From an uncultured Bacilli bacterium (GTDB lineage: Bacteria; Bacillota_I; Bacilli_A; RF39; UBA660), in assembly GCA_910584305.1 (NCBI GenBank), contig CAJTZW010000005.1, forward strand, positions 37,684-101,683: a DNA stretch of 64,000 bases, given 5' to 3'. The translations under genes were made by a program, and so were the position numbers. The stretch's first letter is position 1, and every line of letters starts with the position of its first letter. Positions 1 through 61,062 of this stretch are shown here, one piece after another. The notes under the pieces were generated by a model. That model was not told the origin of the DNA. It ran no database searches and worked only from the letters and a program-made list of their open reading frames with translations.

Positions 1-584
1 GGTACTCTAGCTTCTTCACTATTTTCAAATACATTTTTACCAGAAGAATCTTTAACGGCTAATACTTCAATATTTTCAAATAGCTTACCAACCATTAATC
101 TTCCTTCTTCATTGACAGCTTTCATATAAATATCAATATAATTTCCAGGGAAAATTGAATTTCCGTAAGTAGAATTCATAGTAACAGGGAAATTGTAAGG
201 AACTTGACCCTCTGGAATATCAACAAATGCTGAATCTGGTAAGTCTTTTTCCTCTACCAATGTATTTGTATAGAACATACTTCCTTCTGGAATAACTGTA
301 TTATAATTAGAATATTTTCCAATTACTTGACCTGATGTTCTAATTACATTTGACTGTAAAACTACTGGAGCTACATCAATATATTCAATCATATCATTAG
401 TAATCTTTGTTCTAGGTTGAATCGTTTGTGCAGCAACAGGAATTCCTTTGACTGGATTAACAGCACTGTTTACTTGATATCTATATCCAAAGAATATAAC
501 CAAAACAACTGCCATTACTCCTAAAACGGTTACGGTGTTTTTGTTCTTAAAAAATCTTTTTATTGAAATCATAAAATTATTCAT
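1..584 (-). CDS. SAF-domain / CpaB(RcpC)-like Flp-pilus assembly protein, N-terminal part only (gene runs off the window start)
   Basis: Absent from the ORF track because it is open to nt 1. ATG at 582-584. Translation MNNFMISIKRFFKNKNTVTVLGVMAVVLVIFF (TM) ...GIPVAAQTIQPRTKITNDMIEYIDVAP...VIGKYSNYNTVIPEGSMF... fits the TM + SAF-domain pattern of CpaB. Confidence 0.5.
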   Translation of the reverse strand, partial: MNNFMISIKRFFKNKNTVTVLGVMAVVLVIFFGYRYQVNSAVNPVKGIPVAAQTIQPRTKITNDMIEYIDVAPVVLQSNVIRTSGQVIGKYSNYNTVIPEGSMFYTNTLVEEKDLPDSAFVDIPEGQVPYNFPVTMNSTYGNSIFPGNYIDIYMKAVNEEGRLMVGKLFENIEVLAVKDSSGKNVFENSEEARV

Positions 585-604
585 ATTTTTTCAAATCCTT
601 TCAA

Positions 605-1006
605 TTAATATGGTGTTTCTAGAATTGCGTCTAACTTATTACTAATGTTAAACTCAATTACTTCATTTGTTACGTTTGATGCTAAATTAGAAGAAACTCT
701 AATACTTACCTTAGGCGGTGTCTCATTTACATCAAATATTTCTATTTTATAATTTTGTGATAATTGTGCTCCTTCAGCAAAACGTCTCACAAAATTCTCT
801 ACAAACTTTTCACGATCGATACGAATTGTTCCATCTCTTCTATATGTAGCCAAATCGATTGCATCATACATAGCCGCTTCTGTCGTTTCCCTAAGCAATG
901 TATAGTTTTGCTCATCAATACTTGTCATATTTTGGAAGAAGATAATAAAACTTATCGATACAATTCCAAGTCCAATAATAAATATACCCCAAAATGAATC
1001 ATGCAT
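605..1006 (-). CDS. small membrane-anchored protein (one N-terminal TM), function unknown
   Basis: 133-aa ORF with a strong AAGGAGG RBS. Hydrophobic WGIFIIGLGIVSISFIIFF segment. Lies 20 nt upstream of the CpaB-like gene. No prepilin-type cleavage motif visible. Confidence 0.6.
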   Translation of the reverse strand: MHDSFWGIFIIGLGIVSISFIIFFQNMTSIDEQNYTLLRETTEAAMYDAIDLATYRRDGTIRIDREKFVENFVRRFAEGAQLSQNYKIEIFDVNETPPKVSIRVSSNLASNVTNEVIEFNISNKLDAILETPY

Positions 1007-1020
1007 AATATTACCTCCTT

Positions 1021-4014
1021 CTATGGTTGATTATAACAACTTATAAATGATGATTTGTTACTAGCATTAGCACACGTACTATTACTGCTATCTAGAATAC
1101 TATTTCCAGTTGCTGTAGTAATACCACTCTTATGTACAAATTCGCTAATACAATATGCTCCATTTGTACAAGTTAAGTCCCAATCTGCATAACCAGCACT
1201 CTCTTTAGCTTGTTTCGTATTATAATCACGAATTTTCTTAATTGCTGTCGCATCTAAATTAAACGTGTATAAAGGTGTTGCCTCTTGGTAAATAGCACTC
1301 CCATCATATCCTCTATTATTTAATATGTTATTTTTAACTACACTAATGCCATTCCAATTTGTTCCTGGATATCTTCCTTTTACTGTGTCATTAAACATTC
1401 CTTCTGACAATCCTGTTTGGTTAGTTGATTTATCACCATTCATACTTGGAAATGGATTCTCTAAGGAAATTGTACGATATATAATAATTTCTGAACCTGC
1501 TGTTTTATAACAACGCTTATAGCAAAAATCGAGAGCATTTTGTAAGGAATTATTCGGATTTGCTCTTTGTTCGCTTATGCAAATACTGATATCCTTTTTT
1601 GGGTAATCAGAGTTATCTGGGCATTTGTATTTACAATTTGGATCATCTCCACATTCTTCTATATTACAAACATAGGCCATACACTGTTTTTGCTCCCCAC
1701 CAGCACCTAAGCAAGCTGTATATCTTGGGTCATCTTTATATTTGTATGTATTACCTTTAACAGAGTCTGCTGGGCAATAAGAGTCATCATCGGATTCTAG
1801 AGGGCAATATAGATTGGTACAAAATTTATCGGCAGTTTGATTTTGACCATTTGCAAACCAACAGTCGGTAATATCCGCTAATGTTCCATCTACTCTTGTG
1901 CAATATCTTCTATCGTCCTCATCGCAAGGATGATTTTTCACGCAATATTCATAATCATGATCTTTCAAACAATCTTCAATAGATTCCCCCGCATGCTTTG
2001 TATTAGGAGGGCAAACACACAATTCTGGATTGGTATAACAAATATCTGAATCACAATAAACTTCTTTCGCCTCTGCGCATGTATTTGGTATTTTTTCTAA
2101 AATTCCTGTTAGATCCATCCCTACATGTTTGGTCCCTGGAGGGCACTTACATTCACCACTTGCTTCTGTAGTTACATTGTATTTGCAAATATAGTCTGTT
2201 TCATTTAATTTTCCTGCCAATTGATTTCCATATCCTAATGGTAAATTTTTAATTTGTAATTTATAATTATTACCAAATAGTTCTTTCGTAATAAGTTTAC
2301 TTTCTTTCCATGAAATCCCCCCTATTGGAAGAACTCCACCGTATTCTGTTATCAAAATGTGATCAGTGTAGGCAGTGGCAAAGTCAGCTATGAATGTTGC
2401 TTTATCCTTACTTACAGCAACATATTGATTTTCTGGTAATGTATACTGGCAATTGTTTGTAATAGTAACCGAGCTACCATTTACAGTAAAACTAGAATTA
2501 CATGATTGATTCAAAGGAATTGGTCCCTTATCTCCTGTCGTATCATTATAATATAATTCGGCGCCACTTCCATTTATATATGTATAATTCGTTTGGTTTG
2601 CTACATCTAAACAAGCTTGTGAAACCGGAGAATCATTATGCATCATCACTTGGCATTTTAATACAGAATGTGTCGTTAATGGATAGGGATCACCTATTGT
2701 TGGCCAAATTAAATTGGTATTCATTGTAACCGCTGGACTTACATTTCCTGGATAAGAAGCATCCGCTTTTTCTGTGCAATATAAACTACACACCCCGGGA
2801 ATTAAGTCAAATTCCTTCTTACCAAATTCCTTTATTCCATTGTCAGTAGATTCGCAACTATCGGCAGTATATGATTCTGTAAAAGTGCTACACTCACGTA
2901 CATTGTTATCTCTTGTGTTACTACAAGCGGTGTCCCCACAGGTTGCTTTATATCTATAACATAAAACTTCTAATCCAACTGTTTTTTCTGTACTAATATA
3001 GACTGGTTCATATAAGAATTCACCGCGCCCTTCAGCTCCAGGTATTATAACAAAAGGCTGGGAATTTATTCCCTCTGTCGATGTGACTATCATTGTTGTT
3101 TTCTTCTGAGTTGCCATAGCAGTAGCAGTTACGGTGACTTTAGTAGTGTTGTCTGGGACTGCGCTACGTGGAAAACTTACAGTAATTGTTCCAGTCTTTC
3201 CAAAAGTTGATTGTGTAATTGTTGCATTCCCACTAATTCCTGAAACAACAGCATTTACTGAACTTATATCTACATTACTTTCTACATTAAATGTTGCACT
3301 GTAAAATCCGTCTTTTAACGTAAATGTTTTTGTGTTATCAGTGAAATTTAAAGAAAGTGAACCTGTTGAGCTACTAGCTATTGTCGTCGCTAGATTGTAT
3401 AACTCCCACACAGCCTTGTCATAGTCATTGTTAGATTCTTCAAAACCCTTTATCATCTTGTCAATGTTATTAAGATTATTACCTATCACCCCTATATAAT
3501 TCCATTGTTTCTCCGCACCTGAGGGTGTTTCGAATCTATTTACTCCAGTTATTTTTGATAAATATAAATTTAATGCAGTTACCTTTACTACCACTTCATC
3601 ATTATCACTTAAACTATATTTGTTTTTGACACTAGTATCTTGTGCAAGTTTGGCAACTCCCATAGCAGCAAGGTCATTAATCTCCACTTGGTTATACTTT
3701 AATTTAAATGAATTTTGGGGGTCAAATATATATGAACCTGTTGTTGGTGGTTCGTACCAATAAAAGGCGCATAACGCTCTAACTTGGTTATTGCCAACAA
3801 TACAATTTTTGTTACTATCATATTCATTTCCAAAAGAAACATACATATCCCATGTTTCTGGTAATGTACCCGTTCCACTTAGTCGTAAATTATCTCCGCG
3901 CTGAAATTTAATACATGAATAAGGATAGACCGCCTTAACTTCGTTACTCCCCACATGCATTGCAATAAGTCCTGTTATTAATATAGTAGCTATCTTTAAA
4001 TATTTTTTCTTCAT
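1021..4014 (-). CDS. large secreted protein: signal peptide, Ig-like Thr/Ser-rich middle, extremely Cys-rich C-terminal half
   Basis: Track ORF 1021..4074. The likelier start is ATG at 4014 (MKKKYLKIATILITGLIAMHVGSNEVKA signal peptide) behind a GGGGGTG RBS. It overlaps the upstream gene's stop by 13 nt. Duplicated CxCPPxTKHxG motif. Confidence 0.75.
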   Translation of the reverse strand: MKKKYLKIATILITGLIAMHVGSNEVKAVYPYSCIKFQRGDNLRLSGTGTLPETWDMYVSFGNEYDSNKNCIVGNNQVRALCAFYWYEPPTTGSYIFDPQNSFKLKYNQVEINDLAAMGVAKLAQDTSVKNKYSLSDNDEVVVKVTALNLYLSKITGVNRFETPSGAEKQWNYIGVIGNNLNNIDKMIKGFEESNNDYDKAVWELYNLATTIASSSTGSLSLNFTDNTKTFTLKDGFYSATFNVESNVDISSVNAVVSGISGNATITQSTFGKTGTITVSFPRSAVPDNTTKVTVTATAMATQKKTTMIVTSTEGINSQPFVIIPGAEGRGEFLYEPVYISTEKTVGLEVLCYRYKATCGDTACSNTRDNNVRECSTFTESYTADSCESTDNGIKEFGKKEFDLIPGVCSLYCTEKADASYPGNVSPAVTMNTNLIWPTIGDPYPLTTHSVLKCQVMMHNDSPVSQACLDVANQTNYTYINGSGAELYYNDTTGDKGPIPLNQSCNSSFTVNGSSVTITNNCQYTLPENQYVAVSKDKATFIADFATAYTDHILITEYGGVLPIGGISWKESKLITKELFGNNYKLQIKNLPLGYGNQLAGKLNETDYICKYNVTTEASGECKCPPGTKHVGMDLTGILEKIPNTCAEAKEVYCDSDICYTNPELCVCPPNTKHAGESIEDCLKDHDYEYCVKNHPCDEDDRRYCTRVDGTLADITDCWFANGQNQTADKFCTNLYCPLESDDDSYCPADSVKGNTYKYKDDPRYTACLGAGGEQKQCMAYVCNIEECGDDPNCKYKCPDNSDYPKKDISICISEQRANPNNSLQNALDFCYKRCYKTAGSEIIIYRTISLENPFPSMNGDKSTNQTGLSEGMFNDTVKGRYPGTNWNGISVVKNNILNNRGYDGSAIYQEATPLYTFNLDATAIKKIRDYNTKQAKESAGYADWDLTCTNGAYCISEFVHKSGITTATGNSILDSSNSTCANASNKSSFISCYNQP

Positions 4015-4025
4015 TCCTACACCCC

Positions 4026-4667
4026 CTAAAAAAGGCTTTCTTTTTTTCTTTGTATATAAATAATTGTTAAACATACTATGATGATTATTGGCAGAATAAT
4101 ATAGTAATAGTTTACAAAGAAGATTATGAGGTAGTCATATATTCCGAGTACTTCTTTTTCTTTTTCTGGTGCTGGTTCTACAGGTTGTTCTTGTTTTAAT
4201 TTACTTACTTCATTTATAAATGTATTATAATCATAATTTATATGTATCCATTTTTGGCAAATACTATTTGTTACTCCTATACAAATGGGATCACTATAAT
4301 ATGGATTATATCCAGGCAAAGTTATATAGTGTGAATATAATCTTTTATTGCTACACTCTCCTGTTCCATATATATCGAATCGATAATTTGTATTTGGGGT
4401 ATACCCATATAATACGAGCTCACTTGATGTATATGCATAATCTCTCTGATTATTTACATCTCTAACTCGAAATTCAGGTTGTAAATTTGTCATAATAATA
4501 TAGAAAGAGACTTGGCCATTTTCTTCTATATAATCATATGTAACTACCACATTTTGTGCCAAAGAAGATAATCTTATTTTCTCTGTATTGCTACACTGTG
4601 CGGATACATGAAGTGGAAATAATAATCCTATAGTCAATGTTATGTACCATAATAATCTATATTTCAT
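4026..4667 (-). CDS. secreted protein with C-terminal TM anchor, FN3-like beta-rich ectodomain (unknown function)
   Basis: 213-aa ORF with GGAGGAG RBS. Signal peptide ...LLFPLHVSAQC. C-terminal YLIIFFVNYYYIILPIIIIVCLTIIYIQRKK. Confidence 0.65.
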   Translation of the reverse strand: MKYRLLWYITLTIGLLFPLHVSAQCSNTEKIRLSSLAQNVVVTYDYIEENGQVSFYIIMTNLQPEFRVRDVNNQRDYAYTSSELVLYGYTPNTNYRFDIYGTGECSNKRLYSHYITLPGYNPYYSDPICIGVTNSICQKWIHINYDYNTFINEVSKLKQEQPVEPAPEKEKEVLGIYDYLIIFFVNYYYIILPIIIIVCLTIIYIQRKKESLF

Positions 4668-4734
4668 TCTGCCTCTCCTCCCATATTATAACATATTTTT
4701 ATTTGTAAACAATGATTTTGCATCTTTTTTTACA

Positions 4735-6303
4735 TTATTTAACAGTATAACTGTATATTTTATTACGAATTTTGAAAACCAATTCTATACTTTCTGCATT
4801 TTTAAGCTCATCTACTACTTCGACATAGTATTCATTAACTAATTTTGCCTTTGCTGGTTTGATTTGCTTCCATCCTAGTTGCATTGTTTTCTTTCTACCA
4901 TCAATGCGATATTCAATATGACCAAACCTACTCATAAATGTATATAAGTCTGTAGTATTATTTTCTTCTGTTATTGTTCCTATAATTTTTAATAGCGCTT
5001 TTTTCTCATTTCCACTAAGTGTTGGTTTTATATATTCATAGGATGAATAGCATTGCATTTCTATACAGTAATTATAGTCAACTCTGAATGTATCTGCAAT
5101 TTCTATACTGTCTATTTTAAATTCCTTATCTCCCAGTATACTCTCTTTTAAATTTACACTTTCTGGCATAGTATATATTGTTTTAGTATCTTGTCTCATC
5201 AGTGATATTGGATTTACTTCCATTTGTATTTGTTTGTTATTATAATCTGTATATATTAATTTTATTTTGTTATCTAAAAATTCAGTTGGGACTTTATATA
5301 TAAATACATAGTCTGTAAAAGTATTTTGAATATCTTGCCCATTATATATAGTTCCCATATCTAACATTTGTTCACTATAAGTTGTTTCGTGATAAAAATA
5401 ATGTTCATTGATATTTAAAACTAGACGAGCAGTATCAAATTTTCTATCTTTAGAAGTATTATTTTGAATATTCATATGGATTATTATAAAAGCTTCTTCC
5501 TCTGACAGTTTATTTCCTTTATAGTCTGTATCAGACGCATAAGAATCTAAAAGTTGAAGCGTATAGTAATTGGTAGTGAAAGCCTCACCTTTTTTATATA
5601 CCTTGTTGTATACACCTACATTCATATATATAAGTAAACTAGTAATCCCTAAAGCTAGTATAACAACAGCCAAAATTATGAATCTATTTTCCTTATAGAT
5701 ATATTTTATATGGCGAATGGCTCTATTGATTTTTCGTTTTGTTTCATCAGAATTTAAATCAACATTTACTTCAAATTCCTCACTATCAACATCTTCTATC
5801 TCTAATTCTTGTAGGTCTTTCGTGAAATCAAATTTTTGTACATTAAATCCTGTTGCACGAATTGCCACAATAACAAATGATACTACCTGCAATCCAAATG
5901 CAGTCGTTAGTAAATCTTGAACTAATTTTAGTGTTCTGACATCTACAAGTTGAATTTCTAAGGAACTGGTTATGGAATAGGAAACTGCATATACAAAGAT
6001 TACAAAGATATAAACTAATAAATTATATATATATAGTTTTACCTTTTTCCCTTTAAATACCATTAACCCTAATATAATTAGGGTTTCTATTAAAATAATC
6101 AGTGCAGAAACATACATTAAAGTATTATACAATTCCCCTGTCAAATCTTTCCCAATTACAGAATTGTATGTGGCCATATATTCATTGTAAAAGCTTAAAA
6201 TCAAATTTGTTTTATACACCAAGTAAAAAGATAGTATTGTCAGAATTAGATGAATTAATTTAAAATGCTTAATTAAAATTGCAAATGGTTTTCTAAGTAT
6301 CAT
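4735..6303 (-). CDS. polytopic membrane protein: N-terminal multi-TM block, acidic cytoplasmic linker, further TM and a large extracytoplasmic beta-rich domain
   Basis: 522-aa ORF with GGGGTGG RBS. Several hydrophobic segments in the first ~165 aa. Linker EIEDVDSEEFEVNVDLNSDE, then TM FIILAVVILALGITSLLIY. Confidence 0.65.
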   Translation of the reverse strand: MILRKPFAILIKHFKLIHLILTILSFYLVYKTNLILSFYNEYMATYNSVIGKDLTGELYNTLMYVSALIILIETLIILGLMVFKGKKVKLYIYNLLVYIFVIFVYAVSYSITSSLEIQLVDVRTLKLVQDLLTTAFGLQVVSFVIVAIRATGFNVQKFDFTKDLQELEIEDVDSEEFEVNVDLNSDETKRKINRAIRHIKYIYKENRFIILAVVILALGITSLLIYMNVGVYNKVYKKGEAFTTNYYTLQLLDSYASDTDYKGNKLSEEEAFIIIHMNIQNNTSKDRKFDTARLVLNINEHYFYHETTYSEQMLDMGTIYNGQDIQNTFTDYVFIYKVPTEFLDNKIKLIYTDYNNKQIQMEVNPISLMRQDTKTIYTMPESVNLKESILGDKEFKIDSIEIADTFRVDYNYCIEMQCYSSYEYIKPTLSGNEKKALLKIIGTITEENNTTDLYTFMSRFGHIEYRIDGRKKTMQLGWKQIKPAKAKLVNEYYVEVVDELKNAESIELVFKIRNKIYSYTVK

Positions 6304-6407
6304 TCTGCCACCCCTATTTTCTTATTTATAGTATATATCAAATTTAGGAAAAAAAAAAGAAGAATTATTACATTCTACTAATTTTTTGACTAAAAATGCA
6401 GTGATTT

Positions 6408-7205
6408 TTAGATTTTAGAAAAATAATTTTTCTTTTTAGATACAACAAATGTGAGTGCACTAAGGATGGCTACCATAGCAACTGTCATTGAAATATATAA
6501 TCCAGTACTAGGATTCTCTACTTTTGTTTCTACATTTGGAGTTACTTCTACTTTTGGCTGTTCTGGCTCTGGCTGTACCACTGGAACCTCTGGTTCTGGT
6601 GTTGGTTCTGGTTCTGGTGTTGGTTCTGGTGTTGGTTCTGGTTCTGGTGTGTAATCATGAAATGGTGAAATACCACATTTAATGTTTATTTTCAATGTCT
6701 TAGCAGTTGTAACCGATATGTTAACAGAAGAGTCTTCTGTAGCTTCAGAATGATTTACTGTATATTCTGTAATTTCAATTCCAGAATCCCCTAATGTAAG
6801 TGCACTATGGTCAACTTCATCTAACCATTGAAAGAAAAGGTCAACATCATATCCATAGTATTCTGCAACTGACTCAAGCAATAGTTGATTTACTAATTCT
6901 TCAAACATAGCAAGTTCTACATCATTGGTAGTATTACCACTAAAGAATGTAACAATGTCATTTGCTTGATAATATGTAACACTATATGTTTTTCCTGTTT
7001 CCTCATCTGTTACACTAATTACCATGTGGCTATCGTCACTTGTAATGGTAATAGCGTCACCTGATACTTGAATAACTGAATTATTTTTCATTTTTGTAAC
7101 AATCTTTTCCCAGTTAGTCCCCTCAGTTGGAGCTGCCGATACAACATTTGGAGCAACAAATAAGACAGTTAAGCTCATCATAATTCCAAGTAATGTTTTC
7201 TTCAT
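6408..7205 (-). CDS. cell-wall-anchored surface protein with LPXTG-like NPSTG sorting signal and Pro/Glu/Thr linker
   Basis: 265 aa with AAGGAGGAG RBS. Signal peptide ...APNVVSAAP. (TPEPEP)n stalk. C-terminus reads ENPSTG + hydrophobic LYISMTVAMVAILSALTFVV + SKKKNYFSKI. Confidence 0.7.
   Translation of the reverse strand: MKKTLLGIMMSLTVLFVAPNVVSAAPTEGTNWEKIVTKMKNNSVIQVSGDAITITSDDSHMVISVTDEETGKTYSVTYYQANDIVTFFSGNTTNDVELAMFEELVNQLLLESVAEYYGYDVDLFFQWLDEVDHSALTLGDSGIEITEYTVNHSEATEDSSVNISVTTAKTLKINIKCGISPFHDYTPEPEPTPEPTPEPEPTPEPEVPVVQPEPEQPKVEVTPNVETKVENPSTGLYISMTVAMVAILSALTFVVSKKKNYFSKI
6591..6650 (-). repeat. exact 30-nt tandem duplication inside the PEPT-linker coding region
   Basis: 6591-6620 and 6621-6650 are both tggttctggtgttggttctggttctggtgt. 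On the coding strand this encodes the TPEPEPTPEP stalk. Confidence 0.85.
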
Positions 7206-7447
7206 AATATCTCTCCTCCTTATTTTATAAGTAGTGATTTTACTATGCTACCTATTATCTAAATCATAGCACAGCTTCTTTTTTATGTCAATTAGAGGCA
7301 TATAAATTGTCAATTCTTGTCATTTTCAAAAATGCGTATAATTCCAATATTCAGTCTTTCATTGTCATAACATATCTGTCTAAAGCATTATTGCAACATG
7401 TAAATAAGCAGCCACCATTCAATTTAAACTGTTTAATTCATTTTCTG

Positions 7448-7855
7448 TTAAGTAGTTTTTAGCAATCTCAGTTTCTTCTCTTGTGAACATATCTCCTTTT
7501 TTAAAGTTTGTACAGCGAAGTAAGTTTGACCTAAAGCAACTACTTCTTTTCTAGGACCTGCATTTTGCACTATTAAATAACATGCGTACCTTGATAGCTT
7601 ATAATCTAATATATTTTTAACTCCACCGTTAGGCATTTTTGATGTTTTTCCCACTTGGGAAAAATGTTCAAAAGCCTCATAATTACTATTCTCACATGCT
7701 TTTTGAGCATTCCCTATTACATTACAAAATTTATCCCATCTTTTATATTCCAATACATTTTGTAGTTCTCTGGCATACCAATACTCATCACCATATTCAT
7801 TAATATGTTTAATATCTTCAAATACTGTTTCATTGTGTTCCTTAATTTTGTTCAT
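7448..7855 (-). pseudogene. DinD-like (DNA-damage-inducible protein D family) gene, C-terminally truncated
   Basis: 135 aa reading ...FEDIKHINEYGDEYWYARELQNVLEYKRWDKF...KLSRYACYLIVQNAGPRKEVVALGQTYFAVQT matches the N-terminal half of DinD-type proteins, which I recall as roughly twice this length. About 240 nt of non-coding DNA follows. Confidence 0.5.
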
Positions 7856-7887
7856 TCATTACCTCCTCGTATATGTTTAAATAATTT

Positions 7888-8382
7888 CTAATTTTTTATT
7901 GCATCAGTATGCACCACGTAATTTAATTTTGATAATATTCTATTAGCATGCCATTCTATTTCATATTGATAACTTTCCTTTTTCTTTAAGCGTTCAAATT
8001 CTTTAATTAAATATAGTTTAAACTCTGGGCTAATCCAGCTTGCAAACTCAAAGGCAATATCACTTCTAGCGAATGATCCTCCACCATATTTACCTGATTT
8101 AGATATTATACCAATAGAATTTGTTTCCCTAATCCATTTTTGAGAAGACATTGTAAAAGCGTGTCTTCCAGCCTCGTTTTTAAACTGGTCGAATTCGACT
8201 AGTTTAAAATTCTCGTTATTTAATTCTTCCCATACTCCCAAAAAGGAGATTGTTTCTTTATTTCTCATCCAATTTTTAACTACATCTGCTGGGCTTTCAT
8301 CATTTTGTGTTCTTGCTAAATCAGTTAGAGAAATATATTCATAGCCATTTATTCTTAAAACTTTTATAGTATTTCCTTTAAC
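7888..8382 (-). pseudogene. KilA-N domain gene remnant (no start codon for the conserved N-terminus, C-terminal part missing)
   Basis: The frame is open from 8382 (VKGNTIKVLRINGYEYISLTDLARTQNDESPADVVKNW-MRNKETISFLGVWE...). The first ATG is only at 8268. The ORF stops after ...HTDAIKN, where full-length homologues continue. Confidence 0.45.
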
Positions 8383-8403
8383 TCAACTTCAGTTTGTATT
8401 AAA

Positions 8404-10638: not shown

Positions 10639-12105
10639 ATGAAGTTGGATAAAAATATTACCAATATCTTACAAAAAATTGTGAATGATTACGGAAATAG
10701 TAGCGAGATTGTGAAACGTACAATAGAAATTGGTAGAGATAAAATTTCTTATATCTATTTAGAAAGTGTTAGTAGCGATGATAAAATTAGCAATTTCTTT
10801 ATGAAAGATATTAGTGATTATGTAAAGAATAAAAAGAAGTCACTATTTGAAAATTTATTTGATTCACTCGAGAATTCAATTCCAAATAGTCATCTACAAA
10901 TCGTAAAAACCTATGAGGATATATATTATTTTCTATCTTCTGGATATACAGCTATTTTTGTAAATAATGAAGATAGAGGAATTGTCATTGAAACAAAATC
11001 TAGTTTGGATAGAGGGGTTACAGAAGCAAGTAGTGAAGCAGTGGTTCGTGGGCCTAAGGATAGTTTTACTGAGAATAATGCTACCAATTTAGGTCTAATT
11101 CGAAAAAGAATTAAGGATCCAAATTTATGGTTTGATGAAACAGTTGTAGGTAGAAGGTCTAAAACTAAAGTTACGATTGCCTACATTCAGGATGTTGCTG
11201 ACATAGATAGAGTTACTGTGCTTAAACAAAAATTAGAGGCAATTGATGTAGATGGCATCCTTGATAGTGGTTATATACGGGAATTTATTTTAAAGGAGAA
11301 CAAATCTTCTTTCCCACAATTTAAGAGTACTGAAAGGCCTGATCTTGCATGTACTGCATTATTAGATGGAAAGCTTATTATTTTGGTTGAAAACTGCCCA
11401 TTTGTTTTAATCACACCTGGACTACTTATTGATTATTTGCATTCTCCAGAGGACAATTACCAAAAACCAATCAATACAAATTTTACACGATTATTACGTT
11501 TCTTTGCATTTATTATCACAATTGTTACCCCTGGTTTCTACATATCTGTTACTACATTTAACCAACAAATGGTTCCTAATGAGCTTTTAATCTCACTTGC
11601 TCTGCAAAGAGAGGGGGTCCCCTTCCCTACAGCCTTTGAAATCATGATGTTAATTATTACTTTTGAAATTTTAAGGGAAAGTGATATTCGTATTCCGAAT
11701 GCCATGGGAGCTGCTATTAGTATTGTTGGAGCGCTTGTTTTAGGGGATGCGGCTGTTAGTGCTGGAATTATTTCGCCAATCGTTGTCATCATTGTGGCCA
11801 TTACGGCAATTTCTGGCCTTTTATATACAGATATTGATTTTGTAAATGCAGCTAGATTTTGGCGGATCCTATTCATTCTTGCTTCTGTGATTGCAGGCCT
11901 TGTTGGATTTGTTATTATGGGGATTATCTTTATTACGAAATTGTGCAGTCTAGAAACTGGAAATGTCCCTTATCTAACACCAATCGCACCATTCTATGCA
12001 AAAGATCAAATGAACTTCTTATTCCGCAAGTCTAGAGATAAGATGGTATATCGCCCTAAATTTTTATCACCTAAAAACCAAAGAAGACTAGGAGGAAACA
12101 AATGA
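10639..12105 (+). CDS. spore germination receptor subunit A (GerA/GerKA family)
   Basis: 488 aa. Typical GerAA pattern (...AYIQDVADIDRVTVLKQKL..IDVDGILDSGYIREFI...) with a C-terminal multi-TM region. Confidence 0.9.
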   Translation: MKLDKNITNILQKIVNDYGNSSEIVKRTIEIGRDKISYIYLESVSSDDKISNFFMKDISDYVKNKKKSLFENLFDSLENSIPNSHLQIVKTYEDIYYFLSSGYTAIFVNNEDRGIVIETKSSLDRGVTEASSEAVVRGPKDSFTENNATNLGLIRKRIKDPNLWFDETVVGRRSKTKVTIAYIQDVADIDRVTVLKQKLEAIDVDGILDSGYIREFILKENKSSFPQFKSTERPDLACTALLDGKLIILVENCPFVLITPGLLIDYLHSPEDNYQKPINTNFTRLLRFFAFIITIVTPGFYISVTTFNQQMVPNELLISLALQREGVPFPTAFEIMMLIITFEILRESDIRIPNAMGAAISIVGALVLGDAAVSAGIISPIVVIIVAITAISGLLYTDIDFVNAARFWRILFILASVIAGLVGFVIMGIIFITKLCSLETGNVPYLTPIAPFYAKDQMNFLFRKSRDKMVYRPKFLSPKNQRRLGGNK

Positions 12106-13268
12106 AATATAAATGGATATTGCTAATTCCTTTTTTATTTATCATAACTGGTTGTTGGAATTATAGGGAATTAAATCAACTTGCAATCACAACTGCCATG
12201 GCAATTGATTTAACAGACGATGGAGAGGAATATCGTGTCAGCATTTTAATCGCGAATGGTAAAAATAATCAAACAAATAATCGTGAAGGACAGAGTCAAA
12301 CTGTTGTATATTCTGGGCAGGGTAAAACCATTTCTCGTGCTTTTAAAGAGATTAACTTACAGATTCCAAAAATTCCTTATATTGGGCATTTGGGAGTAGT
12401 TGTAATATCGGAAGATGTTGCGAATAAAGGAATGAGAGGAATTCTCGATTACTTATTAAGAAATCCTGAATCGGTAAAACGTTTTTATCTTATTTTAGCG
12501 AAAGACGATTCCGCAGAAGATGTCATCAAGGTTCTTTCCCCACTCGAAACGTTCCCTGGGCAAAATATTACAACAAATATTGCCATTTCTAACGAGCAGG
12601 AGGCCATTTCAACTGCGATTACATATAGTAAGTTTGTAGAAAATCTACTCAAGGACGGAAAAGACCCTAGTTTACCAACAATTACCATCAGTGGGAAGCC
12701 TGATAAAGGGAGTAGTGACAAGAATCTAGAGACTGCAGATATTAAAACAAATACAGTACTGGGACCCATTGCCCTATTTAAGGGAGACAAATTAGTACAT
12801 TTTGCTACAAAGGATGAAAGTCGGGGAATGAACATTATAACTAAGCAAATTGATGAAATGATTGTAGATTATACATGTGATGAGGGAAATATTGTAGTCA
12901 ACTTAACCAATATGTCCTCTGATATCAATGTGGATCTTAAAAACGACAAAATTAAGTCCTCTATTTCCGTTAAGGCAGAGGGTGCTATTCAAGAGATTAC
13001 ATGTGATAAAAATATTCAAGAGAATGATGTTATTTTAGAGATTGAAAATAGGGTTGAACAAGAGGTCCGAAAAAAAATGGAAAAAGCTGTAAAAACAACC
13101 CAAGAATATCAATCTGATATTTTTGGAATTGGAAATTTAATTTATAAAAAATATCCTACTTATTTTCGAAAAATTAAAGATTGGCATGACATATACCCAT
13201 CTGTTTCCTTTGATTATCATGTGGATATACAATTAAGTACAAAAGGCTCTGTAGAGAAAACTATATAG
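12102..13268 (+). CDS. spore germination receptor subunit C lipoprotein (Ger(x)C family)
   Basis: 388 aa. Lipobox FIITGCWNYRELNQLAI is typical of GerAC/KC. 4-nt overlap with the A-subunit gene. Confidence 0.85.
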   Translation: MKYKWILLIPFLFIITGCWNYRELNQLAITTAMAIDLTDDGEEYRVSILIANGKNNQTNNREGQSQTVVYSGQGKTISRAFKEINLQIPKIPYIGHLGVVVISEDVANKGMRGILDYLLRNPESVKRFYLILAKDDSAEDVIKVLSPLETFPGQNITTNIAISNEQEAISTAITYSKFVENLLKDGKDPSLPTITISGKPDKGSSDKNLETADIKTNTVLGPIALFKGDKLVHFATKDESRGMNIITKQIDEMIVDYTCDEGNIVVNLTNMSSDINVDLKNDKIKSSISVKAEGAIQEITCDKNIQENDVILEIENRVEQEVRKKMEKAVKTTQEYQSDIFGIGNLIYKKYPTYFRKIKDWHDIYPSVSFDYHVDIQLSTKGSVEKTI

Positions 13269-13279
13269 GAGGAATTATT

Positions 13280-14386
13280 ATGAGAGACAAATTAATTGGA
13301 AAATTGCGTTGTTTTCAAGCTTCTTTGCTAGTCTTCTTTATCATACATGGAGGAATTTTTGGAACAGGGCTTAATCTACTTATTAAAATTGCAGAGGAAG
13401 ATGCTTGGATTGCGACATTTATTGCAATCATCCTAGGTTTTATTCCATTCTATATATTTATATCGTTCTCAACAATGTATCCAGAGAAAAATATTTTTGA
13501 AATCATTGAAACCACATTTGGAAAGAGATTTGGTAAAGTGATCATATCTATTATCACTTTATTTGCTATTTCTTTTGTTTTACTTTATTTTTGGAACCTT
13601 ACAAATTTAATCAGTTCTCAATATCTGTACAAAACTCCTCAACTATTCGTTTATATCATCTTTGCAATTCCTATAGTCTATATACTATCAAAGGGGATTC
13701 GTATTTTTCTTAGAAGTAGTATTATTATATTTTTTATTACTGTACTATTATATTTTGTTATATTAATTAGTTTGGCTCCACAGGCACATTTGGTGAACCT
13801 ATACCCAATTTTAAAAAATGGAATTCCCCCTGTTTTTCAAGCTGCTTTTGGACTCATTGCATATTGTATTTCACCACTCTTCTTTTTAGGTGCTATACCT
13901 ATACACTATTATGAGGATAAAGAAAATTATAAAAAGTATATGATTATCTCCTATATTATCACTAGCATTTCTGTTTTCATTATCCCTTTCTTAATTGTTA
14001 GTATTTTTGGAATTGAACTTGCCTCTTTATACCAATATCCAGAGTTCCAAATACTACGTCGTGTATCCATTGGTGGATTCATTGAGAGAGTTGAAAGTAG
14101 CTTGTCCGTTCACTGGATTTTTGAATTACTTATACTTATTACTATGGGTATGTATTTTATCAAGCAAGGATTTTACCATATTTTTCATATCAAGAAAAAT
14201 TGGTTAAAACTTAGTATGAATGGCCTATTTTTAATCGTTTCTATCATCTGTAGCCTAAACTTTTTTAGAAACAATACTATTGTAAATCAATTCTCTGTTA
14301 AAATATATCCTTTTATATGTTATGTATTTTTAATCTTATCCGCATTACTCTATGGGATTAGTTATATTAAAAAGAAACGGCATTAA
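13280..14386 (+). CDS. spore germination receptor subunit B (GerAB/KB-type APC-like permease)
   Basis: 368 aa, about 10 TM segments, GGAGG RBS. Third gene of the A-C-B operon. Confidence 0.85.
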   Translation: MRDKLIGKLRCFQASLLVFFIIHGGIFGTGLNLLIKIAEEDAWIATFIAIILGFIPFYIFISFSTMYPEKNIFEIIETTFGKRFGKVIISIITLFAISFVLLYFWNLTNLISSQYLYKTPQLFVYIIFAIPIVYILSKGIRIFLRSSIIIFFITVLLYFVILISLAPQAHLVNLYPILKNGIPPVFQAAFGLIAYCISPLFFLGAIPIHYYEDKENYKKYMIISYIITSISVFIIPFLIVSIFGIELASLYQYPEFQILRRVSIGGFIERVESSLSVHWIFELLILITMGMYFIKQGFYHIFHIKKNWLKLSMNGLFLIVSIICSLNFFRNNTIVNQFSVKIYPFICYVFLILSALLYGISYIKKKRH

Positions 14387-40429: not shown

Positions 40430-40498
40430 TGGTGTCCACGATAGGACTCGACCTACCACCTAAAGTTTAGGAAACTTTTGCTCTACACCAATAAGCTA
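40430..40498 (-). pseudogene. tRNA-Arg(CCU)-like remnant (D-arm to CCA; 5' acceptor strand missing, T-loop one nt short)
   Basis: Minus strand reads ta-GCTTattggtgtaGAGC-a-AAAGTttCCTaaACTTT-aggtg-GTAGGtcgagtCCTAT-cgtggac-a-cca. No complementary 5' acceptor strand upstream. Confidence 0.5.
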
Positions 40499-59972: not shown

Positions 59973-60049
59973 TGGTCGGGAAAACAGGATTTGAACCTGC
60001 AACCCCTTGGTCCCAAACCAAGTGCTCTACCAAGTTGAGCCATTTCCCG
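59973..60049 (-). tRNA. tRNA-Pro (UGG)
   Basis: Cloverleaf readable. Anticodon loop ttTGGga. Acceptor cgggaaa/tttcccg. CCA encoded. Confidence 0.9.
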
Positions 60050-60058
60050 ATATAAATA

Positions 60059-60135
60059 TGGTGCGCTCGAAGGGATTCGAACCCCTGACCTTTTGGTTCG
60101 TAGCCAAACACTCTATCCAGCTGAGCTACGAGCGC
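60059..60135 (-). tRNA. tRNA-Arg (ACG)
   Basis: Anticodon loop ctACGaa. Acceptor gcgctcg/cgagcgc. CCA encoded. Confidence 0.9.
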
Positions 60136-60155
60136 AGCTTTTTGTTAAATTTAAA

Positions 60156-60231
60156 TGGTGGCTCCGAGTGGAATCGAACCACCGACACAGGGATTTTCAG
60201 TCCCTTGCTCTACCGACTGAGCTACAGAGCC
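60156..60231 (-). tRNA. tRNA-Phe (GAA)
   Basis: Anticodon loop ctGAAaa. T-arm ggtggttcgattccac. CCA encoded. Confidence 0.9.
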
Positions 60232-60240
60232 AAATATAAA

Positions 60241-60316
60241 TGGCGGTCCCGACGAGAATTGAACTCGCGATCTTCTGCGTGACAGGCAGACGTGATAACC
60301 GCTACACCACGGGACC
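60241..60316 (-). tRNA. tRNA-Asp (GUC)
   Basis: Anticodon loop ctGTCac. Acceptor ggtcccg/cgggacc. CCA encoded. Confidence 0.9.
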
Positions 60317-60320
60317 ATTT

Positions 60321-60397
<77 letters not shown>

Positions 60398-60416
60398 ATA
60401 TATAAAATTATTTAAA

Positions 60417-60507
60417 TGGCGGAGAAACTGGGATTCGAACCCAGGCGCCGGTTGCCCGACCTACCGGTTTTCAAGACCGGACCCTTCAACCACTTGGGTA
60501 TTTCTCC
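60417..60507 (-). tRNA. tRNA-Ser (UGA)
   Basis: 91 nt with a long variable arm. Anticodon loop ctTGAaa. CCA encoded. Confidence 0.9.
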
Positions 60508-60515
60508 AATACATA

Positions 60516-60604
60516 TGGTGCCTAAGGCCGGACTTGAACCGGCACGGGATTTGACTCCCGCAGGATTTTAAGTCCTGTGCGTCTACCAATTTCGCCACTC
60601 AGGC
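60516..60604 (-). tRNA. tRNA-Leu (UAA)
   Basis: 89 nt with a long variable arm. Anticodon loop ctTAAaa. CCA encoded. Confidence 0.9.
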
Positions 60605-60626
60605 AACAATTAATTAAAAAAAATAA

Positions 60627-60702
60627 TGGTGTCCCGTACAGAATTCGAATCTGTGACCCTTTGATTAAAAGTCAAATGCTCTACCAGCTGAGCTAACGGG
60701 AC
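60627..60702 (-). tRNA. tRNA-Lys (UUU)
   Basis: Anticodon loop ctTTTaa. Acceptor gtcccgt/acgggac. CCA encoded. Confidence 0.9.
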
Positions 60703-60718
60703 ATATACAAATTTTAAA

Positions 60719-60794
60719 TGGCTGCCTCGGCTAGACTCGAACTAGCGAAATGCCACAGTCAAAGTGTGGTGCCTTACCGCTTGGCTACGAGGCA
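60719..60794 (-). tRNA. tRNA-Gln (UUG)
   Basis: Anticodon loop ctTTGac. Acceptor tgcctcg/cgaggca. CCA encoded. Confidence 0.85.
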
Positions 60795-60809
60795 ATCTAA
60801 CACGTTAAA

Positions 60810-60893
60810 TGGTGGAGGGAGATGGATTTGAACCATCGAACCCGAAGGAACAGATTTACAGTCTGCCGCGTTTGACCACTTCGCTACCCCTCC
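60810..60893 (-). tRNA. tRNA-Tyr (GUA)
   Basis: 84 nt with a long variable arm. Anticodon loop ctGTAaa. CCA encoded. Confidence 0.9.
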
Positions 60894-60901
60894 ATATAAA
60901 A

Positions 60902-60977
60902 TGGTGCCGAAAGCAGGAATCGAACCCGCAACCTACTGATTACAAGTCAGTTGCGCTACCAGTTGCGCCATTTCGGC
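60902..60977 (-). tRNA. tRNA-Thr (UGU)
   Basis: Anticodon loop ctTGTaa. Acceptor gccgaaa/tttcggc. CCA encoded. Confidence 0.9.
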
Positions 60978-60985
60978 AAAAATAA

Positions 60986-61062
60986 TGGTGGGCGATATAG
61001 GACTCGAACCTATGACCCCCTGCTTGTAAGGCAGGTGCTCTAACCAACTGAGCTAATCGCCC
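60986..61062 (-). tRNA. tRNA-Val (UAC)
   Basis: Anticodon loop ctTACaa. Acceptor gggcgat/atcgccc. CCA encoded. Confidence 0.9.

Follow-up and report, generated by a model that had tools for sequence, protein, structure and literature searches.

What kind of structure is built by a run of secreted and membrane proteins that ends in a CpaB-like gene? This question is raised by the left end of a stretch of 64,000 nucleotides (referred to here as the window) from contig CAJTZW010000005.1 of an uncultured Bacilli bacterium, where six genes follow each other closely on the minus strand. A preliminary description of this DNA regarded them as an uncharacterised surface-structure module, possibly the head of a Tad-type locus. 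Our results suggest that window positions 1-6303 (minus strand) are the promoter-proximal half of an eight-gene, very divergent Tad/Flp-like module, which is chromosomally fixed in low-GC gut Bacilli and lies upstream of a type IV secretion system (T4SS). In our view it is probable that the module builds a Tad-like filament with a strain-variable adhesin and that this filament serves as the contact arm of the adjoining T4SS.

The six minus-strand open reading frames (ORFs) in window 1-7205 (1-584, partial; 605-1006; 1021-4074; 4026-4667; 4735-6303; 6408-7205) were numbered g1 to g6 in the order of transcription, and the genes beyond nucleotide 1 are g7 to g9. All six were found where they had been described, with a purine-rich Shine-Dalgarno sequence 5-10 nucleotides upstream of each, and hydropathy and composition agree with the protein topologies given earlier for g1 to g6. 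The 13-nucleotide overlap that had been reported does not exist. The start of g4 that is supported by a ribosome-binding site is the ATG at 4014, preceded by GGGGGTG, which leaves a gap of 11 nucleotides after g3; an overlap of g3 and g4 (49 nucleotides) arises only if the longest ORF, starting at 4074, is used. The features are as follows.

6408-7205, minus strand: g1, predicted NPSTG-anchored wall protein of 265 amino acids with a (TPEPEP)n linker; a neighbour outside the conserved module
7263-7291, minus strand: promoter-like site upstream of g1 (TTGACA, 17 nucleotides, TG-TATGAT), from a consensus scan
4735-6303, minus strand: g2, 522-amino-acid polytopic protein with about five transmembrane segments, an acidic cytoplasmic linker and an ectodomain of about 290 amino acids; first gene of the conserved core
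4026-4667, minus strand: g3, 213 amino acids, with signal peptide, beta-rich ectodomain and C-terminal transmembrane anchor; conserved core member
1021-4014, minus strand: g4, 997-amino-acid secreted Cys-rich protein (longest ORF to 4074); candidate strain-variable surface protein or adhesin
1486-3931, minus strand: hypervariable segment of g4, comprising the mature N-terminal region and the Cys-rich middle, which differs by exchange between strains
1021-1485, minus strand: C-terminal domain of g4, about 150 amino acids, the sole part conserved across species; presumed docking handle
605-1006, minus strand: g5, 133-amino-acid DUF5411 protein with one N-terminal transmembrane segment and the leader MHDSFWG; may be a minor subunit resembling prepilins, or an assembly factor
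1-584, minus strand: g6, first 194 codons of a 274-amino-acid CpaB/RcpC-like protein with an N-terminal transmembrane segment; runs past nucleotide 1

The CpaB-like gene had been expected to continue beyond the window, and its remainder is indeed present on a public ENA contig identical to the window (L001, L090), on which the sequence past nucleotide 1 was read (full-length g6, L001:10423-11247). The part of g6 inside the window matches TIGR03177 (E 1.9e-9) and Pfam RcpC (E 1e-5), as does the full-length protein (E 3e-9 and 7e-6), in both cases under the curated cut-offs. The Pfam SAF model by itself was not significant (E 0.09-0.14); thus, of the CpaB/SAF assignment proposed before, the CpaB homology holds and the SAF domain is not recovered by this model. 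In hhalign comparisons, a profile of 23 g6 orthologues aligned with the CpaB that the annotation pipeline PGAP assigns on pXO1 at 99.7% probability (E 1.6e-25, 233 columns) and with the CpaB of S. meliloti at 87%, and a search of the CpaB profile against the PDB gave no match. Because of the alignments to the pXO1 and rhizobial proteins the assignment stands, and g6 is, by profile homology, a CpaB homologue. The genes that follow it are:

L001:11247-12350, outside the window: g7, 367-amino-acid CpaF/VirB11-family ATPase, overlapping cpaB by one base
after g7, outside the window: g8, 300-amino-acid polytopic membrane protein
after g8, outside the window: g9, 261-amino-acid polytopic membrane protein, with a one-base overlap with g8

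The ATPase g7 is matched by Pfam T2SSE with 92 bits (cut-off 25) and stays under every NCBIfam equivalog cut-off. Its best PDB matches are CpaF (5e-18) and VirB11 (1e-17), which are nearly equal, followed by archaeal FlaI and GspE (e-15 to e-16). The three genes lie in a tadA-tadB-tadC arrangement; the stop and start codons of g8 and g9 overlap, and the size, position and coupling of the two proteins are those of TadB/TadC. The AlphaFold2 model of g9 (52-sequence alignment) is confident, with a mean predicted local distance difference test (pLDDT) score of 88.7, and Foldseek returned one specific match for it, the cytoplasmic domain of EpsF/GspF, with a probability of 0.96, a target-normalised template-modelling (TM) score of 0.64 and a root-mean-square deviation of 3.9 A. 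The model is supportive of a TadB/TadC-like platform, short of conclusive. With the remainder of cpaB past nucleotide 1, followed by the ATPase g7 and the coupled membrane proteins g8 and g9, the earlier suggestion of a Tad-type locus is borne out. The g9 family comprises 651 clusters at 50% identity. Some of its members (P0359, P0367, P0372, P0394 and others) have about 500 amino acids with a g9-like C-terminal half, and some show two matched stretches; these proteins look like g8+g9 fusions, recalling the two-domain PilC/GspF.

The same set of genes was found in many species. A scan of genome collections with the DUF5411 alignment recovered 268 species, and 80 loci were kept, all from uncultured metagenome-assembled genomes (MAGs). 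Most of these 80 loci are labelled Bacilli/Bacillales, others "Tenericutes", Mollicutes or Mycoplasmatota, and a few were deposited as uncultured Muribaculaceae; the named carriers include "Acholeplasma sp. CAG:878" and Ca. Faecisoma, and one related genome is a closed contig of 1.2 Mb. Almost without exception, in about 80 species, the genes retain the order g2-g3-(g4)-g5-g6-g7-g8-g9. The gene g2 has a fixed position (73 of 85 loci) and g3 always lies between g2 and g4 or g5 (74 of 85). Across species, identity is 65-90% in the cytoplasmic and membrane parts and 25-45% in the exposed parts.

The first of the six genes is different. The g1 gene occurs only in this species and its nearest relative (L006), and it has its own near-consensus promoter at 7291-7263, predicted from a consensus match of 11 of 12 positions plus an extended -10 element. 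Because of these two properties, the co-conserved run within the window has five genes (g2 to g6), not the six proposed before, and judged by gene content across species the conserved unit is an eight-gene core, g2 to g9, that excludes g1. No terminator-like site was found between g1 and g2. The g1 product has a signal peptide, the NPSTG motif, a transmembrane segment (residues 233-257) and the basic tail KKKNYFSKI, and it scores 22.5 bits with NF033846 Rumino_NPXTG, just below the cut-off of 23.5. The linker of g1 is encoded by a DNA repeat with a period of 18 nucleotides (6591-6668), the only notable repeat in 1-8400.

It had been stated that none of the five proteins upstream of CpaB belongs to a nameable family. 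This is true of g3, which has no Pfam or NCBIfam match, and of g4, which has none in Pfam, NCBIfam, PDB sequences or plasmid and phage collections. The g2 protein has weak matches to DUF4352 and DUF5067 (Pfam, E 2e-3 to 6e-3, under the cut-off) and none to PDB sequences. It is not true of g5, which is a member of Pfam DUF5411 (PF17424; 178.4 bits with a cut-off of 30, E 7.8e-53, profile positions 1-133 of 134), has 2305 relatives and is present in 85 of 85 loci.

The N-terminus of g5 suggests what this protein may do. It starts with MHDSFWG (family consensus MKESFWG) and continues with a hydrophobic stretch. Directly after g9, most species have genes for a protein of 63-77 amino acids, two proteins of about 145 amino acids and one of 333 amino acids, and the small protein as well as both of the 145-amino-acid proteins start with M[KR][EQD][AS]xG and a hydrophobic helix. 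Among 22,313 ATG starts in all loci the motif M[KR][EQD][AS]x(x)G occurs 210 times, of which 192 are in g5 and the two pilin-like families, and the remaining 18 look like divergent members of these families. Since this leader is common to DUF5411 and the pilin-like proteins, we infer that it is of the prepilin type, which would make DUF5411 a candidate minor pilin or pseudopilin. Contrary to the statement that no protein of the run has a prepilin motif, g5 does have a leader that resembles those of prepilins. The protein has no match to the Pfam models N_methyl and TadE, and DUF5411 has none to PDB sequences. The AlphaFold2 model of DUF5411 is poor (21-sequence alignment, pLDDT 50) and shows a long N-terminal helix followed by beta strands; a Foldseek search with it was discarded as meaningless at this pLDDT. 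The 63-77-amino-acid pilin candidate has a weak match to the archaeal Pilin_N (E 0.004). A motif scan of the window for ORFs with the Flp signature G/XXXXEY gave none.

Some loci have further genes in this region. In Acholeplasma sp. CAG:878 (L072:14574-17417) the small pilin gene is followed by a gene for a protein of 947 amino acids with Ig-like repeats and the canonical prepilin N-methylation motif KMG|FTLIELL; such genomes must therefore also encode a classical prepilin peptidase. The species of the window, and only this species, has between g9 and the pilin-like genes (L090:10879-15880) an ORF6N gene, a SpoIID-like gene in reverse orientation, a RelB/YafQ pair and a gene for a LysM/peptidoglycan-binding protein. 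ORF6N is split here into 88 and 145 amino acids and is intact (241 amino acids) in strains L003 and L005. A second RelB/YafQ pair is located at L093:2127-2686.

The strain-variable member of the module is g4. Its product carries a Sec signal peptide but no anchor, and of its 43 cysteines 36 fall within residues 341-843. The DNA of L001 is 99-100% identical to that of L003 and L005 through g2, g3 and the g4 signal peptide, then about 2.4 kb of g4 are unalignable or 65-70% identical, and from the last 155 or so codons onward the identity is 95-97%. At the protein level, alleles of this one species share 18-21% of residues 29-340 and about 37% of the Cys-rich middle (341-843), the C-terminal domain is 81-85% identical and the last 100 residues are identical. 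The N-terminal 815 or so amino acids are swapped between strains and a C-terminal domain of about 150 amino acids is conserved. The divergence between alleles of one species equals that between species, and BLAST matches in distant species cover residues 844-997 or so only. Neither shufflon-like nor DGR-like (diversity-generating retroelement) repeats were found around g4, which points to allelic replacement by recombination in the conserved flanks.

Wherever the g4 domain is carried it is C-terminal, and in 75 of 89 domain hits the gene is located immediately upstream of g5. An alignment of 57 sequences gave the motif IIYRTISLxNPFP..GRxPGxNW..NRG..PLY..IKxIRxYN..GYxDF..C; a protein search with the domain returned only 7 fragments, a depth insufficient for modelling. 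Known filament-borne adhesins, PilV among them (PMC9045228), and Tad tip complexes (PMC12075869) likewise combine a handle that stays constant with a head that can be exchanged, and these data fit the earlier proposal that the upstream proteins are accessory, adhesin or tip components. In some species there are two tandem g4 paralogues or a g4-type gene upstream of g2 (L064:4681-9994; L080:4875-7499; L081:3170-5697). The G+C content of g4 (window 2001-4000) is 35% compared to 28-30% in the flanking genes, which could reflect amino-acid composition or a foreign origin of the allele.

After the pilin genes, the cluster continues in the same orientation into a T4SS of the monoderm type. This region was analysed in 31 full loci recovered with the VirB4-like protein and in 30 genome loci; the T4SS was read in orthologous loci, in this species for the first genes only, up to the TrbL_4-like gene. 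The genes are, in their order:

first T4SS-side gene: T4SS_pilin-like protein with two transmembrane segments
after it: a variable large protein
VirB6/TrbL-like protein: Mbov_0396 / MMCAP2_0566 families, E 1e-10
between the VirB6/TrbL-like and TraC-like genes: a small membrane protein
TraC-like protein and VirB4-like ATPase: VirB4_plasma (Mbov_0397 family) E 4e-104; CD1110 family E 3e-51
wall hydrolase: Peptidase_M23 E 7e-28, with lysozyme, SpoIID or CHAP
VirD4-type coupling protein: T4SS-DNA_transf E 4e-52, in 28 of 31 loci, followed by housekeeping genes

Downstream of the Tad-like genes, the T4SS_pilin-like gene is present in 25 and the TrbL-like gene in 22 of the 30 genome loci; conversely, 22-25 of the 31 loci recovered with VirB4 have the Tad-like genes upstream. 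By its gene families, the system that adjoins the Tad-like module is a monoderm T4SS (MPF-FATA or mycoplasma-ICE-like, ICE standing for integrative and conjugative element). Given this junction, a different function of the Tad-like module becomes likely.

Several observations weigh against a Tad-like filament that works together with the T4SS, and at the level of sequence the module is one that fails several defining Tad features. No T2SSF domain was detected in g8 and g9 by Pfam (23 orthologues each and ten distant relatives), PDB profile search or hhalign; the sole trace in Pfam is that 3 of 23 g9 orthologues reach E 0.07, and hhalign found nothing between g8 and g9 or between g9 and the T2SSF protein of S. 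meliloti. The Foldseek E value for EpsF is 0.9, so the fold match rests on the probability and the TM score of one domain. The pilin candidate of 63-77 amino acids starts with MKEAxG-EANMTV, has no EY and thus lacks the Flp signature. Of the Tad genes expected beyond nucleotide 1, the ATPase and the two membrane proteins are there; TadZ and a prepilin peptidase were not found. No gene lies between cpaB and g7 on the contig that could be TadZ, and the 333-amino-acid protein that occupies the TadZ position matches neither ParA/MinD nor TadZ and gave an empty PDB profile search. One of its 11 orthologues matched CbiA (E 0.046); with no similarity to ParA/MinD, its assignment as TadZ is unsupported and was given up. 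A motif scan of the 64-kb window detected no A24 prepilin peptidase, and none was noticed among the conserved flanking genes of related loci, for which no peptidase model was run. The relation of DUF5411 to the minor pilins comes down to a leader of only 6-7 residues, since hhalign gives 6% for this pair and aligns the N-terminus only, and G7 of the leader is not invariant (S, A or M in some members). The pilin-like genes of this species lie 5.4 kb past g9, with unrelated genes between. About 20 species have no g4 within 10 kb. Finally, it is only the adjacency, shared orientation and co-conservation of the two modules that speak for a functional link to the T4SS.

If a Tad-like filament with a g4 adhesin nevertheless acts as the contact arm, it might work in the following way. 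The g7 ATPase would drive the g8/g9 platform, which would polymerise the small pilin, with the minor pilin-like proteins including DUF5411 priming polymerisation and CpaB, g2 and g3 forming a scaffold that spans the envelope. Sec would export g4, whose conserved C-terminal domain might dock on the filament, probably at the tip, so that g4 displays a variable binding surface stabilised by disulfides or metal. The filament could then capture a partner cell or a surface and draw the partner to the T4SS, which would move DNA or protein. Exchange of g4 alleles might retarget the binding specificity or help to evade immunity and phage.

The strongest alternative, which we regard as rather unlikely, is that the filament is a stand-alone adhesion pilus for colonisation, as in Bifidobacterium breve or Aggregatibacter, and that the adjacent T4SS is independent of it. 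Tad pili are self-sufficient adhesion organelles, and the unrelated genes that interrupt the cluster in this species would be compatible with two separate systems. The related module on a B. velezensis plasmid adjoins a thioester-domain adhesin, and the DUF5411/CpaF operon of Roseburia, Ruminococcus and Eubacterium was described without T4SS genes (PMC9523054). However, in nearly all loci with long enough flanks the two modules are contiguous and co-oriented (the 25/30, 22/30 and 22-25/31 given above), and the pilin genes pass directly into the T4SS genes without an intervening housekeeping gene.

It is improbable, and more so than a stand-alone pilus, that the module is an exporter similar to a type II secretion system (T2SS), in which a short pseudopilus pushes g4, and perhaps the ectodomains of g3 and g2, through the wall. 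Here g4 would be the cargo. Its Sec signal peptide, the missing anchor and a C-terminal domain that might act as recognition signal are what one would expect of such a cargo, several of the proteins resemble pseudopilins, g9 is similar to EpsF, a platform protein of the T2SS, and Miller et al. labelled the related operon "secretion-related" (PMC9523054). The whole machine is kept without g4 in about 20 species, however. In addition, a major pilin candidate of Flp size (63-77 amino acids) is conserved, and the closest relatives of the ATPase are CpaF, VirB11 and the archaeal pilus ATPases rather than GspE. Besides, an outer membrane that an exporter would have to cross is absent from monoderms.

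Slightly less probable still is a mobile element, in which case the whole cluster of about 27 kb would constitute an ICE, with a mating-pair or recipient-recognition apparatus encoded by the window genes. The VirB4, the VirD4 coupling protein, the VirB6-like protein and the wall hydrolase are all most similar to mycoplasma ICE proteins, KilA-N, Bro-N, ORF6N and RelB/YafQ genes are located nearby, and homologous CpaB and CpaF/VirB11 modules are found on Bacillus conjugative plasmids (PMC9673590). The position and inheritance of the cluster argue against mobility. Neither a relaxase nor an integrase or transposase could be recognised up to 10 kb from both ends of the cluster in the 31 + 30 full loci, as judged by clustering and partial annotation only, with no relaxase HMM (hidden Markov model) search. 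Several diverged species share the chromosomal neighbours, with rluB and scpAB upstream in 8-15 other species and housekeeping genes downstream; in the species of the window the gerA operon and further genes have been inserted between the cluster and rluB, which is 9 kb away on the upstream side. All 23 contigs that carry the HAD protein of this species have the cluster in the same context, and no strain lacking it was found among them. Protein divergence follows that of the housekeeping gene: identity between species is 64-74% for rluB, 59-75% for g5 and 57-91% (mostly 62-87%) for g7-g9, so that rluB is similar to g5 and somewhat below g7-g9. The conserved neighbours, the presence in 23 of 23 contigs and the rluB-like divergence point to a vertically inherited chromosomal system.

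That the genes are a chance run of unrelated surface-protein genes, as the many proteins without family assignment might suggest, is highly improbable and already refuted by synteny, given that some 80 species share this order of genes, with proteins that are 30-90% identical and junctions that are short or overlap. Two further candidates were rejected, a prophage origin, which is ruled out by the lack of phage matches and the conserved synteny, and a SpoIIIA-like sporulation channel, since the ATPase matches spore_III_AA with E 0.08 only.

We therefore return to the Tad-like filament next to a T4SS, which can be compared with several known systems. Shared with the Tad/Flp (type IVc) loci of Aggregatibacter (tad), Caulobacter (cpa) and the monoderm Bifidobacterium breve (tad) are CpaB, an ATPase of the CpaF family with two coupled polytopic membrane proteins of TadB/TadC size behind it, a major pilin (here a candidate) of very small size, and pilin-like minor proteins as large as TadE/TadF, with leaders that end in glycine in the small pilin candidate as well as in the minor proteins. 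In contrast to them, the locus described here has a platform that is not recognisable as T2SSF by sequence, a pilin without G/XXXXEY, no recognisable TadZ and no peptidase found at the locus; it has the extra conserved proteins g2, g3, g4 and DUF5411 and is physically joined to a T4SS.

In the plasmid collection, the ATPases nearest to g7 are encoded on Bacillus plasmids, with 26-32% identity (tblastn), and the g7 orthologue profile matches them with E 5e-39 (pXO1) and 3e-52 (B. velezensis plasmid NZ_CP019039). Five components of these modules are homologous, including g8-like (E 2e-6) and g9-like (E 7e-12) proteins, they lie on conjugation-related replicons, and large surface proteins adjoin them. 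On pXO1 there are a DUF5411-like protein, DUF4320, CpaB, an AAA ATPase, CpaF/VirB11 and the g8-like and g9-like proteins; on the B. velezensis plasmid the thioester-domain adhesin occupies the g4 position. The DUF5411-like protein of pXO1 (L089:1118-1994) is annotated as "hypothetical protein" and is a distant relative by profile (E 4e-5); as its gene adjoins that of DUF4320, DUF5411 and DUF4320 appear to be linked to the same plasmid Tad-like module. Unlike the locus of the gut Bacilli, these modules are plasmid-borne and uncharacterised, pXO1 keeps a TadZ-like AAA ATPase, homologues of g2, g3 and g4 are missing, and the adhesin is a thioester or SLH protein, not a protein with the g4 C-terminal domain. 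A VirB11 homologue has been reported in the tra region of pAW63 and pXO2 (PMC9673590). Because the modules of pXO1 and the B. velezensis plasmid are homologous to ours, the "VirB11" of pAW63-type tra regions may be a Tad-like pilus ATPase.

Miller et al. (2022) predicted computationally a DUF5411/CpaF "secretion-related" operon in Roseburia, Ruminococcus and Eubacterium (PMC9523054). It has eight to nine genes, among them a CpaF-type ATPase, DUF5411, membrane proteins that the authors call PilC/GspF-like and other unannotated genes. These bacteria are Clostridia, and the operon contains an internalin-like protein, whereas g4 has no match to leucine-rich repeats or internalin; T4SS linkage, the pilin leader and allelic variation were not reported in that computational prediction. 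Two points are new, namely the allelic replacement of g4 within one species and the direct continuation of the module into a monoderm-type T4SS.

A filament next to a conjugative T4SS is also known from the thin type IVb pilus of IncI plasmids (R64, TP114) with the PilV shufflon, where an adhesin with a constant part has exchangeable variable parts that determine the partner specificity (PMC9045228). The IncI pilus belongs to another class of filaments and to diderms. Its PilV is a pilin, unlike g4 with its Sec signal peptide, and varies by site-specific inversion within one genome; in our locus the strains differ by whole alleles of g4, around which no shufflon repeats were found. The Kil Tad pilus of Myxococcus has variable tip modules and depends functionally on a second secretion apparatus, a needleless type III secretion system (T3SS) (PMC12075869). 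There the partner is T3SS-like and not a T4SS, the tips are minor-pilin complexes in several paralogous sets, and the organism is a diderm predator. In Patescibacteria, chromosomal MPF-FATA-like T4SS occur in reduced genomes, with a monoderm-type VirB4, T4SS_pilin-like genes and mostly no relaxase, and a co-option for non-conjugative contact functions alongside type IV pili has been proposed (PMC12102498). This is another phylum, no fused Tad-like module was reported for it, and the link to our locus is by analogy only.

A vertically inherited Tad-like filament, a conjugation-type channel and a swapped surface protein would together be a strong candidate for partner or host contact in widespread uncultured gut Bacilli. 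DUF5411 and at least six unannotated families would gain a functional context, and the type IV filament superfamily would extend to a branch that the T2SSF, Flp and TadZ models in use today miss. It would also be suggested that "VirB11" on the conjugative plasmids of Bacillus is part of Tad-like pilus modules, and the C-terminal domain conserved in g4 might define a new class of adhesins that dock on filaments. It might even be that a domesticated T4SS without relaxase and a Tad-like grappling filament with a strain-exchanged g4 tip form a core partner-contact organelle of small-genome gut Bacilli, used for attaching to cells and for taking DNA or nutrients or injecting proteins; this we consider doubtful. 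If true, it would be a Firmicute counterpart of the T4SS and type IV pilus apparatus that Patescibacteria need for epibiotic growth, and abundant gut Bacilli would live as epibionts or parasites of other microbes.

Several other features were observed around the module. Between the gene for the HAD hydrolase and g1 the window contains, at 7448-8268 (minus strand), a KilA-N gene (126 amino acids) and a Bro-N/DinD-like gene (135 amino acids). The DinD model is matched at positions 4-131 of 288 only, and both genes look like split or truncated genes of mobile elements. A germinant-receptor operon (GerA, GerAC and a spore permease) is located at 10639-14386 (plus strand), with the SpoIID-like gene nearby on the contig. 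From these sporulation-related genes and the Bacilli/"Tenericutes" labels of the MAGs it follows that the source organism is probably walled and able to sporulate. A search of the window with Rfam detected tRNAs only, namely an array of 12 tRNAs at 59976-61062 (minus strand) and a weak tRNA-like match at 40441-40498 (minus strand; 33 bits, partial model).

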